A DNA stretch of 64,000 nucleotides from Patescibacteria group bacterium (GTDB lineage Bacteria > Patescibacteriota > Patescibacteriia > Magasanikbacterales > GWA2-37-8): the NCBI GenBank assembly GCA_004321885.1, contig SCQK01000004.1, positions 22,684 to 86,683 on the forward strand, read 5' to 3'. Positions 1,155 to 31,517 of this stretch are shown one piece after another. How positions within the stretch are numbered: the stretch's first letter is position 1; the number at the start of each line of letters is the position of its first letter. The notes beneath the pieces are model-generated. The model had not been told where the DNA came from, did not search any database, and saw nothing but the letters and a program-made list of their open reading frames with translations. The position numbers and the translations under genes are program-made.

Positions 1155-1227
1155 GCGCCTGTAGCTCATCGGTTAGAGCAATTGCCTTATAAGCAATGGG
1201 CAGATGGTCCGACTCCATCCAGGCGCA
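1155..1227 (+). tRNA. tRNA with anticodon UAU (Ile, AUA-decoding); no CCA encoded
   Basis: Hand-folded cloverleaf: acceptor GCGCCUG/CAGGCGC, D-arm GCUC-AUCGGUUA-GAGC, anticodon stem AUUGC/GCAAU with loop C-U-UAU-A-A, 5-nt variable loop, T-arm GAUGG-UCCGACU-CCAUC. Confidence 0.7.
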
Positions 1228-1234
1228 CGAATAA

Positions 1235-15243: not shown

Positions 15244-15268
15244 AAACGCCCCTGTTAAGGGGGCGTTT
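15244..15268 (-). terminator. Rho-independent terminator of rnpB
   Basis: AAACGCCCC-TGTTAA-GGGGGCGTTT, followed on the minus strand by a U-rich tract (plus-strand AAACAAAAA at 15232..15243). Confidence 0.6.
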
Positions 15269-15269
15269 G

Positions 15270-15724
15270 TGGTTCATGGTTATAAGCCGAATTTTGTACC
15301 CCGACGTTACGTCGGGGCGATGTTCATTTCTCTGGTCTTGACATTGCTGTCAAAATCTTAGCGAGCGAACTTTTTATCCCGACTAAGTCGGGACTCTGCT
15401 CTTGCGCCAGACAGGGCTTGGCACTCTTCGACGTTGCCGCCGAAGGGAGTATGGTAGCTTTGGTCTCGAGAACCACAACTCCCATACACTTTTCACCTTT
15501 GACGAACCCCGACTAAGTCGGGGTGAACGTCCGCCTGTGGCGGACTCTCATGAATCGCTAGTATTGTCTCTGTGCCGCTTTCCCTACGCCGACGTTGCCG
15601 CCGACGTGGCGGGTGTTACCCGTTGCCTTTTTCTTTACCGGCTAGTTCCGCTAAGGGCGGACAGACGGAAAGGGCGTTCGGACTTTCCTTCCCGACTAAG
15701 TCGGGACGAACATCTGCCACGAAC
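15270..15724 (-). ncRNA. rnpB: RNase P RNA, bacterial type A
   Basis: Minus-strand RNA reads ..GGAAGGAAAGUCCGAAC.. (P4 5' strand), ..GGGUAACACCCGCC.., ..AGGUGAAAAGUG.., ..AUGAACAUCG-CCCCGACGUAACGUCGGGG-UACAAAAUUCGGCUUAUAACC.. (P15-P18 and P4 3' strand; compare E. coli AUGAAUGACUGUCCACGACAGAACCCGGCUUAUCGG). P1 is GUUCGUGG/CCAUGAAC. The ORF-track ORFs 15023..15361 and 15402..15731 lie inside it. Confidence 0.85.
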
Positions 15725-15730
15725 TGATTA

Positions 15731-27865: not shown

Positions 27866-29686
27866 TTATTTCCTCCCGCTGATTTCGGTTTTCAAGCGAG
27901 AGATAAAATTTTGTTTAGACATTTTTATCTGGTCCTTTTGCCCGCGCGCGCGAATCATCCACGGCTCGCCGCCGATTTCCTTGTCGCCCACCACCACCAC
28001 GTACGGAATTTTGCGCTCGGCCGCTTTGCGGATTTTATTGCCCAAGGTTTCGTTGGCCTCGTCTGTTTCCACTCGTATGCCCGCGTCTTTCATTTCACCC
28101 TCAATGGCGCGAGCGCCACCGACGTGCTTTTCCGAAACCGAAGCCAACAAAACCTGGACCGGCGACAGCCAGAGCGGCCATACTCCCCCGTAATGTTCTA
28201 TCAAAAACGCCGTGAACCGCTCGTGCGTGGACAGCGGGGCGCGATGAATGACAAACACCTCGTTATTTTCTTTGCCGCTTTCGTCCGTGTAACTCAACTC
28301 AAATCTTTTCTTGGCCGCGAAATCAAGTTGAATCGTTGACATCGTCTCTTCGCGCCCGACGATTGATTTGAATTGCACGTCAACTTTGGGTCCGTAAAAC
28401 GCCGCTTCGTCGTCAACTTCAACAAAATCCACAAATGCTTCTTGGAGAACTTCACGAATAACGCTTTCGCAAAATTCCCAATTTTTTGGCTCATTGATAT
28501 ATTTGTCCAGACGCTCCGGGCTCCACTTGGACAAACGAAACCAATAATTTTTTAAGCCGAAAATTTCAAAATATTTTATATTTAATTGCAATACATCCAT
28601 GAATTCTGCCTTGATTTGATCTTTGCGGCAATAAATATGCGCGTCATTCATGGCCAAACAGCGCACGCGCAACAATCCGGCCAGGGTACCGGATAACTCA
28701 TTGCGGTAAACCGTGCCGTATTCAGCCATGCGCAAAGGCAATTCGCGATAACTGCGTTGGTTATGTTTGTAAATCAAATGGTGGTGCGGGCAATTCATGG
28801 CTTTCAGATAATACGTGCCATCATCCATTTTCATGGCCGGATACATACTGTCTTTGTAGTACGGCAAATGCCCGGATTTAATGTACAGCTCTTCCTTGGC
28901 CAAATGCGGAGTTACGACGCGCGTGTAGCCGTGTATGTTTTCCATCTCAATGGCTAACTTTTCTATCTCATTTCTTATCACAGTTCCGTTTGGCAACCAC
29001 ATGGCCAATCCTTTACCCACCATGTCATCAATAAAGAACAGGCCTTGCTCCTGCCCAATTTTGCGGTGGTCGCGCTTTTCGGCTTCGGCCAGCATGGCCA
29101 AATATTCGTCCAATTCTTTTTGCGAAGCAAAACAAGCGCCGTAAATTCTTTGCAGCATTTTATTTTTTTCGCTTCCGCGCCAGTAGGCCCCGGCCAATTT
29201 TGTCAGCTTGAACGCGCCGATTTCTTTAGCTGATTGCACGTGCGGCCCGCGACACAAATCCACAAATTTACCCGTTTTGTACAAAGATACAATTCCTTTT
29301 TTCGGCTTTTCGCCAATCACATCGGCTTCGTCTTTCGTCACTCTTGTTGTTCCCTTTTTCTTCAAATCCTTTAACAATTCAACCTTGTAATCCTGCTTTT
29401 CTTTTTTGAAAAACTTTACGGCGTCGTCAATATCCAATTCATTTTTTTCAAACAACAAATCTTTTTCAATCAGCTGGCGCGCCTTGATTTCTATCTTTTC
29501 CAAATCCGCTTCGCCAATGGGCTCTGAAAAATCTATGTCATAATAAAAGCCATTCTCCACCACCGGTCCCACGCCAAACTTGGCCTTGGGATAAAGCTCT
29601 TGTACCGCGGCCGCTACCACATGCGCGCACGAGTGGCGCATTGTCTCCAATTTTTTGTTTTTCTCGTACATATTTAATACAAACAA
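27866..29686 (-). CDS. thrS: Threonyl-tRNA synthetase
   Basis: 606 aa with the N-terminal editing-domain motif RHSCAHVVAAAV, a class II catalytic core and a C-terminal anticodon-binding domain. Confidence 0.9.
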   Translation of the reverse strand: MFVLNMYEKNKKLETMRHSCAHVVAAAVQELYPKAKFGVGPVVENGFYYDIDFSEPIGEADLEKIEIKARQLIEKDLLFEKNELDIDDAVKFFKKEKQDYKVELLKDLKKKGTTRVTKDEADVIGEKPKKGIVSLYKTGKFVDLCRGPHVQSAKEIGAFKLTKLAGAYWRGSEKNKMLQRIYGACFASQKELDEYLAMLAEAEKRDHRKIGQEQGLFFIDDMVGKGLAMWLPNGTVIRNEIEKLAIEMENIHGYTRVVTPHLAKEELYIKSGHLPYYKDSMYPAMKMDDGTYYLKAMNCPHHHLIYKHNQRSYRELPLRMAEYGTVYRNELSGTLAGLLRVRCLAMNDAHIYCRKDQIKAEFMDVLQLNIKYFEIFGLKNYWFRLSKWSPERLDKYINEPKNWEFCESVIREVLQEAFVDFVEVDDEAAFYGPKVDVQFKSIVGREETMSTIQLDFAAKKRFELSYTDESGKENNEVFVIHRAPLSTHERFTAFLIEHYGGVWPLWLSPVQVLLASVSEKHVGGARAIEGEMKDAGIRVETDEANETLGNKIRKAAERKIPYVVVVGDKEIGGEPWMIRARGQKDQIKMSKQNFISRLKTEISGRK

Positions 29687-29689
29687 TTA

Positions 29690-29728
29690 AAATTTAACAA
29701 AAACCCCAATACTACTTAAAGTATCGGG
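29690..29728 (-). terminator. Rho-independent terminator after the DUF4258/DUF2283 pair (minus strand)
   Basis: Minus-strand CCCCGAUACUUUAAGUAGUAUUGGGG followed by UUUUUGUUAAAUUUU. Confidence 0.5.
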
Positions 29729-29875
29729 GTCCTTCATTTTTGAAAGACGGTTCCACCCGAAGTTTAACTTTTACCCTGTTAAATCGCCCCATAGGGACGT
29801 CGGCCTTTGGCCGAATTTAACAGGGTTGAATTTGTAGATACTCCGAGAGTGGTTAGTTCTCGTGCAAACGTATCG

Positions 29876-30085
29876 CTACGCACGGTTGATGCAAAGATTC
29901 CTCATCTGCCTCACCGGAACAAAATTTTCTAAATTAATATCCATTATGTCAATTCCCACAACTTCGCCTTTTTTATTATAATCCACCACCACATTTCCCG
30001 CGATATCAGAATCAACACTTTTTTCTTTTCTAAAGCGTATGGATAGAATGCGATCTTTTTTTATGAAATTGATTTTAGGCGCCAT
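29876..30085 (-). CDS. DUF2283-family small protein (putative antitoxin-like partner)
   Basis: 69-aa MAPKINFIKKDRILSIRFRKEKSVDSDIAGNVVVDYNKKGEVVGIDIMDI: matches the DUF2283 pattern (..D.LYI.....S.E....ILDYD..G.IVGIEI.). Confidence 0.6.
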   Translation of the reverse strand: MAPKINFIKKDRILSIRFRKEKSVDSDIAGNVVVDYNKKGEVVGIDIMDINLENFVPVRQMRNLCINRA

Positions 30086-30240
30086 ACTAGTGGAAAAATC
30101 TTTTTGGCAACGAATCTGTTGAAGCTTGTGCGATCACGGGCAATTTCGTCTGGACTGTTAATCGCGCCGATTACCTCTGTCCGCGATATACCCCGCTCGC
30201 GCATTCTTTTTATCGCGTGGGTAGTAAAACTGACCCGCAT
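30061..30240 (-). CDS. DUF4258-family small protein (putative toxin-like partner); overlaps the DUF2283 gene by 25 nt
   Basis: Hand-translated 59-aa ORF MRVSFTTHAIKRMRERGISRTEVIGAINSPDEIARDRTSFNRFVAKKIFPLVWRLKSIS with the DUF4258 H-x3-RM-x-ERGI-x3-V motif. Below the ORF-track length cutoff. Confidence 0.5.
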   Translation of the reverse strand: MRVSFTTHAIKRMRERGISRTEVIGAINSPDEIARDRTSFNRFVAKKIFPLVWRLKSIS

Positions 30241-30280
30241 AGGGATAAACTATCAATAAATAGCTAAATAGTCAACAGCT

Positions 30281-30361: not shown

Positions 30362-30374
30362 AGAATAAAGTTAA

Positions 30375-31517
30375 CTATTTCACATTTTTCACAATCACTT
30401 TTATCCTGTCCCCCACGCTCGGGGCCGTGCGCATCCAGGAGGGCGAAAATTTCACTTCCACGCCGACCACATGGCTGATGCCCATGATGTCGCGCTCAAT
30501 CTCATCTTTCTTTTTGCCGAAAAAATTGCTGGCCGCGAAGCGCGAACCGTTTACGTCTATGGTCGCCAGCACGTCTTGCGTAGCCGCAATCCGGGCCGTC
30601 TCTTTTTCCAAATCATAATTGGCCAGAGAAATTACAGGCTCTTTGCCCACGGATAAAACTTTTTCAAAACTGACGTCCACTTTGCCCCGCACTTCTTTGG
30701 CGACCAGCTCATTCAAATCAGCGGTTTTAACGCTGACCATAGCCAGGGTGCTGGTGCCGGAAATGAAAAATTCCGAAACCTGGTCCCCGGCCTTGGCGCT
30801 GGCGCGGGTATCGCCGGTCTTTACGTCCACCACTGTTTTTACGCCCGCGTCCGGCGAAGCGAATTTTATTTTGGCTTGCTCTTTGATTTTAGACAAATAA
30901 TCCAGCTCGGCCTGTTTTATGTCAGCCTCGGCCAGCACCCCGATTTTGCGCGTGCCGCCGGTCATGGCCTTGGCGCTTTCACCGTAAATGTATTTTTGCT
31001 TTTCAGCCGACAGCCCGGGAATGGTAAACTTGCTCGGGCCGATGTTGTACGCCGCGCCCTGGCCGTCGGCATAAACCCCGGCAATAATCTGCCCGTTCGC
31101 CGGCACCAGCACATTGTTGGCCAGCCTAAACAAAACCCCGTCGGCCGTGATAAATCTGGTAATTTTTACCAGCGTCTGGCTGGCCGAGGTTTTATTGTAA
31201 ATGGTGATTTCGCCGGTCGCGGTCCCGTCTTCCTCTTTGTTGCCGGTGGGATAATATTTTTCGGTCCAGGCAAAAACAGCCGAGGTGACTGTGCCGCTGA
31301 TGGCGCCCGGCCCTGCCTTTTTGGCCACTGGAATTTCCAAACTCACGTTTTTATTGTCGGTTTTGGCCACCACCACGATGGTGGCTTTTTTGGAGGTGAA
31401 AAAAATCACCACGCCGAGCAGGGCAATGGTGAGAACCAAAAAAGTAATCGCGATGGTGCGATAAAAACCGACCGGCGCCTCGGGCGTCATTTGGGTGGTT
31501 ACGCGATGAGTAATCAT
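30375..31517 (-). CDS. Membrane-anchored hypothetical protein (possibly pilus-associated; downstream of pilB)
   Basis: N-terminal TM AITFLVLTIALLGVVIFF, then a roughly 330-aa extracytoplasmic domain with no recognizable motif. Confidence 0.5.
   Translation of the reverse strand: MITHRVTTQMTPEAPVGFYRTIAITFLVLTIALLGVVIFFTSKKATIVVVAKTDNKNVSLEIPVAKKAGPGAISGTVTSAVFAWTEKYYPTGNKEEDGTATGEITIYNKTSASQTLVKITRFITADGVLFRLANNVLVPANGQIIAGVYADGQGAAYNIGPSKFTIPGLSAEKQKYIYGESAKAMTGGTRKIGVLAEADIKQAELDYLSKIKEQAKIKFASPDAGVKTVVDVKTGDTRASAKAGDQVSEFFISGTSTLAMVSVKTADLNELVAKEVRGKVDVSFEKVLSVGKEPVISLANYDLEKETARIAATQDVLATIDVNGSRFAASNFFGKKKDEIERDIMGISHVVGVEVKFSPSWMRTAPSVGDRIKVIVKNVK

Follow-up and report, generated by a model that had tools for sequence, protein, structure and literature searches.

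A probable decaying DUF4258/DUF2283 cassette ahead of a T-box-like thrS leader in a Patescibacterium

What is a pair of overlapping small genes, belonging to two uncharacterised families, doing in front of an essential aminoacyl-tRNA synthetase gene? The question is raised by a locus within a 64,000-nucleotide stretch of Patescibacteria contig SCQK01000004.1 (the whole stretch is referred to here as the window), in which a 59-amino-acid (aa) open reading frame (ORF) of the DUF4258 family runs into a 69-aa ORF of the DUF2283 family, a short distance ahead of thrS (threonine--tRNA ligase). The initial annotation had described the pair as a toxin-antitoxin (TA)-like module with its own terminator. 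Our analysis indicates, with good confidence, that the locus is a decaying copy of a DUF4258/DUF2283 cassette inserted between a conserved 380-aa gene and the leader of thrS in a Magasanikbacteria-like Patescibacterium. The features on which this view rests are collected in Table 1.

Both ORFs begin with ATG and lie on one strand, with the sizes and the 25-nucleotide (nt) overlap first noted for them. The product of the 59-aa ORF begins MRVSFTTHAIKRMRERGIS (complete sequence MRVSFTTHAIKRMRERGISRTEVIGAINSPDEIARDRTSFNRFVAKKIFPLVWRLKSIS) and carries the H..RM.ERGI motif to which attention had been drawn, in the form HAIKRMRERGI. The assignment to the two families, for which comparison with Pfam profiles had been proposed as a check, was confirmed by matches above the curated cut-offs: PF14076 (DUF4258) scored 33 bits against the 59-aa ORF (cut-off 25; E=7.3e-08) and PF10049 (DUF2283) scored 37.3 bits against the 69-aa ORF (cut-off 23; E=3.1e-09), the latter over profile positions 10-47 of 49. 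NCBI already holds identical proteins as DUF4258 and DUF2283 domain-containing proteins from a Patescibacteria metagenome-assembled genome (MAG), on an 86.7-kb contig. Since both proteins are in NCBI and the relatives of the DUF2283 protein each adjoin a DUF4258 gene, the two small genes are genuine members of their families and not chance ORFs. The PF14076 match spans just profile positions 1-32 of 71.

When 1.84 billion representatives were searched exhaustively by phmmer with the 59-aa query (E<=1e-3), 21 relatives were returned, mostly 78-93 aa in length, every one of which aligns to query residues 1 to ~50 only; these relatives came from the exhaustive search, a word-index protein search with the same query having returned the query alone. 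A family hidden Markov model (HMM) matched the toxin site over positions 1-50 of ~84 and no further, and the C-terminus conserved in alignments of the relatives, ...LLLVxYE...(V/I)ITVIxTSKIxKY(L/F), is absent from the 59-aa protein. Compared with the toxin of locus L203 (...DRFVAKKIFTPAGSRVNYLLLVFYERTVAEIKVITVISTSKIDKYL), the protein is colinear to residue 49 (...NRFVAKKIF) and then continues as the unrelated PLVWRLKSIS. Three-frame translation showed that this tail comes from reading an 8-nt spacer (CCACTAGT) and then, out of frame, the opening 25 nt of the antitoxin gene, while the toxins of L002, L203, and L204 end in ...TSKIxKY(F/L/Y) and a stop codon 4-10 nt ahead of the antitoxin ATG. 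For the missing positions 51-84, the family HMM and translations gave nothing significant in the other frames or elsewhere in the 64-kb window. These comparisons identify a toxin remnant from which ~37 C-terminal codons and the stop codon have been deleted, and the 25-nt overlap exists because the truncated toxin frame runs on into the antitoxin gene after the deletion. The overlap is real but does not represent the native architecture of the module, as relatives show a gap of 1-10 nt.

The arrangement of an intact cassette can be seen in the relatives. A DUF2283 gene lies downstream of the DUF4258 gene on the same strand in 7/7 related loci, as it does in the window. The toxin, the gap and the DUF2283 protein measure 84 aa, 4 nt, and 68 aa in L002; 85 aa, 6 nt, and 70 aa on the contig of P0005; 86 aa, 5 nt, and 69 aa in L203; 88 aa, 10 nt, and 69 aa in L204; and 89 aa, 1 nt, and 69 aa in L210. 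In L209 (85 aa, 5 nt) the DUF2283 gene is cut by the contig end, and in L001 a toxin C-terminus, ...VVTVITTSKIQKYL followed by a stop codon, precedes the antitoxin closest to that of the window (~62-65% identity). The window antitoxin is full length and its gene is intact: it aligns from end to end with four cassette partners, keeps 23/23 columns that are invariant among five (57-62% identity), and was matched by the family HMM over positions 1-68. The proposal of a TA-like module thus finds support in a conserved two-gene cassette, but the toxin gene of the window copy is not intact. One intact cassette (L204:1-2300) lies beside genes for an IS1595-family transposase, a GIY-YIG protein, a 23S rRNA intervening-sequence protein, and a Polbeta-like nucleotidyltransferase, which is a mobile-element context.

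AlphaFold modelling of an 86-aa relative (P0008) gave a predicted local distance difference test score (pLDDT) of 94.6 and a predicted template modelling score (pTM) of 0.84, with elements in the order β1(2-5), α1(7-15), α2(20-28), β2(32-35), β3(42-49), β4(58-66), β5(70-79), and α3(82-85). This full-length DUF4258 relative is predicted to adopt a RelE/BrnT/ParE-like fold of the Barnase-EndoU-Colicin-RelE (BECR) type. In a Foldseek comparison of the model, type II toxins ranked first, below significance, and PDB sequence and profile searches with both window proteins returned nothing significant. The 59-aa ORF covers β1-α1-α2-β2-β3 of the P0008 fold and is without β4, β5, and α3. Because two core β-strands and the TSKIxKY motif are lost, the remnant is most likely non-toxic and would be unable to form the fold.

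DUF4258 has been listed as a BECR-fold type II TA toxin family of unknown activity, 'undescribed in the literature' (PMC11980606), while a 2026 preprint groups it with Colicin-like/Ntox49 domains rather than with RelE/ParE (10.64898/2026.08.28.747851). The window copy shares the N-terminal H-x3-R-x2-E-R motif of the family. The gene order in the window and in the seven related cassettes is toxin then antitoxin, in contrast to the antitoxin-first (A/T) order previously listed (PMC11980606), and the partner is DUF2283 instead of the HicB-like or MqsA-like partners reported elsewhere (PMC4963859; PMC11980606); our literature search found no publication pairing DUF2283 with DUF4258. BrnT/BrnA and HigB/HigA, type II systems with RelE-fold RNase toxins, likewise show a toxin-first order and a tightly spaced downstream partner, but PDB sequence searches detected no sequence similarity between them and the window pair. 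DUF2283, by contrast, has no recognisable helix-turn-helix or ribbon-helix-helix DNA-binding domain, and neither Pfam nor a PDB profile search identified any DNA-binding domain in the window protein.

How the cassette came to lie ahead of thrS is indicated by comparison with other thrS loci. In the window, the neighbouring genes encode a PilB-type ATPase and the conserved 380-aa protein, and comprise thrS, miaB, and miaA. In the loci closest by threonyl-tRNA synthetase (ThrRS) identity (L205, 81%; L206-L208, 75-76%; L003, 70%), a homologue of the 380-aa gene lies 1-90 nt upstream of thrS and TA genes are absent, and in the leader-bearing loci L004, L010, and L211 the homologue lies directly upstream of the leader, again with no TA genes. 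Because all of these TA-less loci join the 380-aa gene straight to thrS or its leader, the cassette appears to be an insertion between the two. Of the repeats sought around the cassette, none was convincing as a target-site duplication or terminal repeat. One 11-nt inverted repeat (AAATAGTCAAC at 30266..30276 and GTTAACTATTT at 30370..30380; 91% complementary, 93 nt apart) has one arm around the stop codon of the 380-aa gene and the other around the −35 element of the cassette promoter, and may be due to chance.

Table 1. Coordinates of the features of the cassette, the thrS leader, and thrS in the window.
Feature	Position	Strand	Basis
DUF4258 ORF, 59 aa, ATG start	30061..30240	-	ORF listing
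Conserved part of the DUF4258 toxin remnant, codons 1-49	30094..30240	-	PF14076, phmmer, alignments, family HMM
Non-homologous tail PLVWRLKSIS + stop	30061..30093	-	three-frame translation, junction comparison with L002, L203, L204
Intact DUF2283 gene, presumed antitoxin, 69 aa, ATG start	29876..30085	-	ORF listing, PF10049, full-length alignment
Stretch shared by both ORFs, 25 nt	30061..30085	-	ORF listing
Cassette promoter-like site: TTGACT (30275..30270), 17-nt spacer, TAGTTT (30252..30247)	30247..30275	-	read from sequence
Promoter-like TTGACA-17-GAAAAT inside antitoxin ORF	29924..29952	-	consensus scan, 10/12 matches
thrS leader, whole extent	29672..29875	-	
Leader 5' domain, very short Stem I	29836..29875	-	local fold; homologous segments in L004, L010, L211
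Y-shaped three-way-junction RNA, ~52 nt	29774..29825	-	fold −32.7 kcal/mol, z = -7.0
T-box-type antiterminator	29726..29758	-	constrained fold, covariance model
Intrinsic-terminator hairpin + U-tract	29694..29734	-	terminator scan (29734..29699 with T-tract), folds
thrS (threonine--tRNA ligase)	27866..29671	-	100% to NCBI protein of the same MAG; Pfam tRNA_SAD, tRNA-synt_2b, HGTP_anticodon

The terminator that had been attributed to the pair, a same-strand hairpin placed at 29690..29728, was recovered at nearly the same position by the terminator scan, but does not belong to the module. The hairpin ends ~27 nt ahead of the thrS ATG (29671), and equivalent hairpins occur upstream of thrS in TA-less L004, L010, L211, and L207. 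Because the same leader hairpin occurs in loci without TA genes, it is best read as the terminator arm of a conserved T-box-like thrS leader and not as a dedicated terminator of the pair. The possibility that it is an independent terminator followed by a thrS promoter was considered and rejected, as only ~27 nt remain to the ATG and no promoter-like site is found there. The leader hairpin can end cassette transcripts, yet it was not brought by the cassette and is not specific to it.

The leader has counterparts at L004:2795-2985, L010:1390-1550, and L211:1205-1415. In the window its 5' domain begins right after the antitoxin stop codon, and local folding gives a Stem I with a base helix GAUAC/GUAUC (5 bp), an upper helix CGAGA/UCUCG (5 bp), and a 9-nt loop, ACUAACCAC. 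The loop holds ACC, a Thr codon (29853..29851), followed by A, and this triplet is a candidate specifier. The 5' domain is conserved in TA-less L004, L010, and L211 as GCG(C)GUU...(C/A)GAGAAC...ACCA(C/U)UCUC(G/U)GAG, with the closing pair of Stem I changed from C-G to A-U in L211; Stem I in these three loci has one short extra helix only. ACC-A occupies the Stem I loop in all four leaders compared (window, L004, L010, and L211), a comparison confined to thrS. The Y-shaped element is found at the same leader position in L211, between Stem I and the T-box sequence; its P1 is conserved in sequence between the two, whereas P2 and P3 differ in sequence yet remain hairpins, with complete covariation between the window and L211. 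L211 contains two near-identical Y copies (1118-1166 and 1277-1327) at a distance of 160 nt, and contig L212 is broken within such a copy; the element may therefore be a structured module that is repeated or mobile, and not a stem of the T-box.

The 3' domain folds under constraint into an antiterminator with an A1 helix GGG/CCC, a 7-nt bulge UGGAACC, and an A2 helix GUCUUUCA/UGAAGGAC, the 3' strands of which are the terminator 5' arm, such that the two structures are mutually exclusive. Just upstream of the hairpin is GGGUGGAACCG, which is matched exactly nowhere else in the window, and the same GGUGGAACC, with its UGGA, is present in ten of ten Firmicute thrS leaders that were retrieved. The antiterminators of these ten thrS T-boxes were the sole input for a covariance model, which was used to search 105 kb, consisting of the 64-kb window and seven thrS loci, and gave exactly three matches (window, L004, and L010), each just upstream of thrS; the best was that of the window at 29724..29766 (20.8 bits, E ~7e-4). 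In a 13-sequence antiterminator alignment all 7 pairs are standard and 5 are changed on both sides, the alignment being one fitted to the model. Rfam was searched with the region, the whole window, and related loci; the T-box model RF00230 matched neither the window leader nor L010, even with the threshold relaxed to E<=10. This negative is real because the positive control, the thrS T-box of L023 (65.2 bits, E=3e-14; gathering score 93), shows the model to be present, and it reflects missing Stem I and Stem II features.

The leader is thus T-box-like in its 3' domain, but its Stem I and the Rfam result place it outside the T-box class as defined. Like T-box riboswitches of the Firmicute thrS type and of the 'ultrashort Stem I' ileS type of Actinobacteria, with which it was compared, it stands upstream of an aminoacyl-tRNA synthetase gene; it has GGGUGGAACC, a 3-bp A1, a 7-nt UGGA-ACC bulge, A2, and a competing terminator, and presents ACC (Thr) followed by a purine in its Stem I loop. 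It differs in having no long Stem I with K-turn, AG bay, and distal loop (its Stem I being 19-60 nt with no distal platform), in showing no recognisable Stem II or IIA/B, and in carrying the Y-shaped junction in the place of Stem III. A short Stem I is held to be typical of translational T-boxes, and transcriptional ones are held to need a long Stem I (PMC7583486); in contrast to this rule, the leader combines a short Stem I with a terminator. Among thrS loci of Patescibacteria the leader is patchily distributed, and the five loci closest to the window by ThrRS lack it. A hairpin lies right ahead of thrS at L207:1925-1990, L206:1935-1990, and L003:2915-2985 though the T-box part is absent, and that of L207 (ACCCCGATAC...GTATGGGGGTTTGTTT) resembles the window terminator and is overlapped in its 5' arm by a promoter-like site, TTGACA-17-TACGCT; this suggests a leader reduced to a terminator/promoter overlap. 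A metagenome scan for the pattern TCTCGGAG-N15-45-GGGTGGNACCG returned 120 loci, all of them chance matches, mostly in GC-rich coding DNA and none of them carrying the leader, and the pattern was discarded as too loose. No publication linking T-boxes with Patescibacteria or the Candidate Phyla Radiation was found in a literature search.

From which promoter the genes are transcribed bears on both cassette and leader. The −10 hexamer of the cassette promoter-like site ends 6 nt ahead of the toxin ATG, and in the unrelated cassettes L002 (~545-572) and L203 (~1000-1027) TTGACG-17-TATACT ends 6-8 nt ahead of the ATG; this suggests that the toxin mRNA of this DUF4258/DUF2283 subfamily is leaderless or near-leaderless. 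The scan for promoters found 5 sites against 1.8 expected. One of them lies within the antitoxin ORF, its hexamers being formed by the codons ATT GAC ATA ... GAA AAT, which differ in L001 and L002, and represents a possible secondary promoter for the thrS leader. In L004, L010, and L211, TTGAC(A/G)-17-TA(A/G)(G/T)(A/C)T lies 8-14 nt ahead of the conserved 5' end of the leader, GCG(C)GUU, whereas in the window the antitoxin ORF, with its stop codon, extends over the corresponding position. The candidate thrS promoters of the window are the cassette site and the internal site, as far as consensus matches can indicate.

If the locus is a decaying cassette, its intact form would have consisted of a promoter ending 6-8 nt ahead of the ATG, a toxin of 84-89 aa, a gap of 1-10 nt, and a DUF2283 protein of 68-70 aa; by analogy with RelE/BrnT/ParE type II systems, the full-length toxin would be an RNase-type growth inhibitor neutralised by DUF2283 binding. 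Deletion of ~37 toxin codons together with the stop would have left 49 conserved codons reading through the spacer into the antitoxin in the wrong frame. Cassette transcripts would then either end at the leader terminator or continue into thrS, with read-through presumably occurring when the antiterminator is stabilised by uncharged tRNA-Thr. Loss of the toxin first, with an orphan antitoxin persisting, is how chromosomal TA modules usually end, and the locus fits this course. Several points speak against such a history. The 59-aa ORF is still open behind a plausible promoter and retains the helix with the invariant H8, R12, E15, and R16, and the remnant may keep a residual function such as antitoxin binding or regulation. 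A few database relatives found by phmmer are also short (52-69 aa); the complete ones among them (P0020 and P0023) still carry the C-terminal motif. The source is a MAG, and the deletion could be a population variant or an assembly error. Neither PADLOC nor NCBIfam has a model for either protein, and AlphaFold modelling of the antitoxin from a two-sequence alignment was unusable (pLDDT 49). Finally, toxicity of DUF4258 proteins and its neutralisation by DUF2283 are 'undescribed in the literature' (PMC11980606). Some of these points would suit an intact and functional TA operon, in which a naturally short 59-aa toxin is translationally coupled to its antitoxin through the 25-nt overlap and the transcript ends at an intrinsic terminator of its own: both ORFs are open and exceed the Pfam cut-offs, a promoter-like site lies directly upstream and a strong same-strand hairpin with a T-tract downstream, and relatives of 52-69 aa exist. 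Such an operon is nevertheless very unlikely, as Pfam and the family HMM match the N-terminal half only, residues 50-59 come from the spacer and antitoxin start read out of frame, the ORF is without β4, β5, and α3 of the predicted fold, all 7 related cassettes show a gap instead of an overlap, and the hairpin is kept in TA-less thrS leaders, 27 nt ahead of thrS with no room for a promoter. That DUF4258/DUF2283 pairs are something other than TA systems, such as a nuclease accompanied by a partner that regulates it or gives it specificity, or an effector-immunity pair derived from polymorphic toxins (the Ntox49, Colicin-like branch), is an improbable reading, if slightly less so. The lack of experimental characterisation (PMC11980606), the placement of DUF4258 with Colicin-like/Ntox49 domains (10.64898/2026.08.28.747851), and the failure to detect a DNA-binding domain in DUF2283 or a PADLOC match are in its favour; however, the genes are small, tightly linked, and always co-oriented in varied contexts, including beside the IS1595 transposase of L204, the predicted fold fits type II toxins best, and loss of the toxin-like gene with an intact partner fits TA decay.

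A further explanation, compatible with decay of the cassette, is that the disarmed cassette has been kept as a supplier of the promoter and the 5' part of the thrS transcript, the insertion having parted the leader from its native promoter and left the cassette promoter, the antitoxin-internal promoter, or both to drive essential thrS. The presence of antitoxin sequence where L004, L010, and L211 have their promoter, 8-14 nt ahead of the leader, is consistent with this, as is the observation that the cassette promoter and TTGACA-17-GAAAAT in the antitoxin ORF are the only same-strand promoter-like sites upstream of thrS. Its support, however, consists of promoter consensus matches, and such hexamers easily arise by chance in AT-rich coding sequence, as the scan total illustrates; moreover, the native promoter of thrS could be none other than that of the cassette, given its resemblance to TTGACG-17-TAGTCT of L004. 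We therefore regard such retention as possible, though on balance unlikely. Rather more plausible, though still only tentatively proposed, is that a minimal transcriptional T-box in Patescibacteria senses tRNA-Thr, with the decayed cassette sitting between the leader and the native promoter position and driving thrS. Such a T-box would combine an ACC-bearing mini Stem I with the UGGA bulge, do without an elbow platform and Stem II, and have the Y junction in place of Stem III, and thrS would be transcribed from the cassette promoter and/or the antitoxin-internal promoter as a toxinΔ-antitoxin-leader-thrS RNA. If this is correct, the combination of a terminator with an ultrashort Stem I would run counter to the current view that a tRNA-elbow platform is required in transcriptional T-boxes (PMC7583486), and, judging by the literature searched, the leader would be the first T-box on record for the Candidate Phyla Radiation.

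The thrS leader is accordingly of more interest than the TA pair, which, taken alone, matters little, being an already annotated and probably degraded copy of an uncharacterised family. The pair illustrates what appears to be toxin-first decay, and warns that truncation can be hidden behind a Pfam match on a short ORF. The DUF4258-then-DUF2283 cassette as seen in the relatives, with the toxin first, a 1-10 nt gap, and a −10 box 6-8 nt ahead of the ATG, is a clean candidate for the first experimental test of the family.

Three RNA genes or elements were observed elsewhere in the window. A DUF3800-II RNA (RF02961) was identified by Rfam at 38568..38631 on the forward strand (67 bits against a gathering score of 43.2), and RNase P RNA class A, also by Rfam, at 15267..15725 on the reverse strand. 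A tRNA-Ile with anticodon TAT (UAU), an uncommon bacterial way to read AUA, lies at 1155..1228 on the forward strand.

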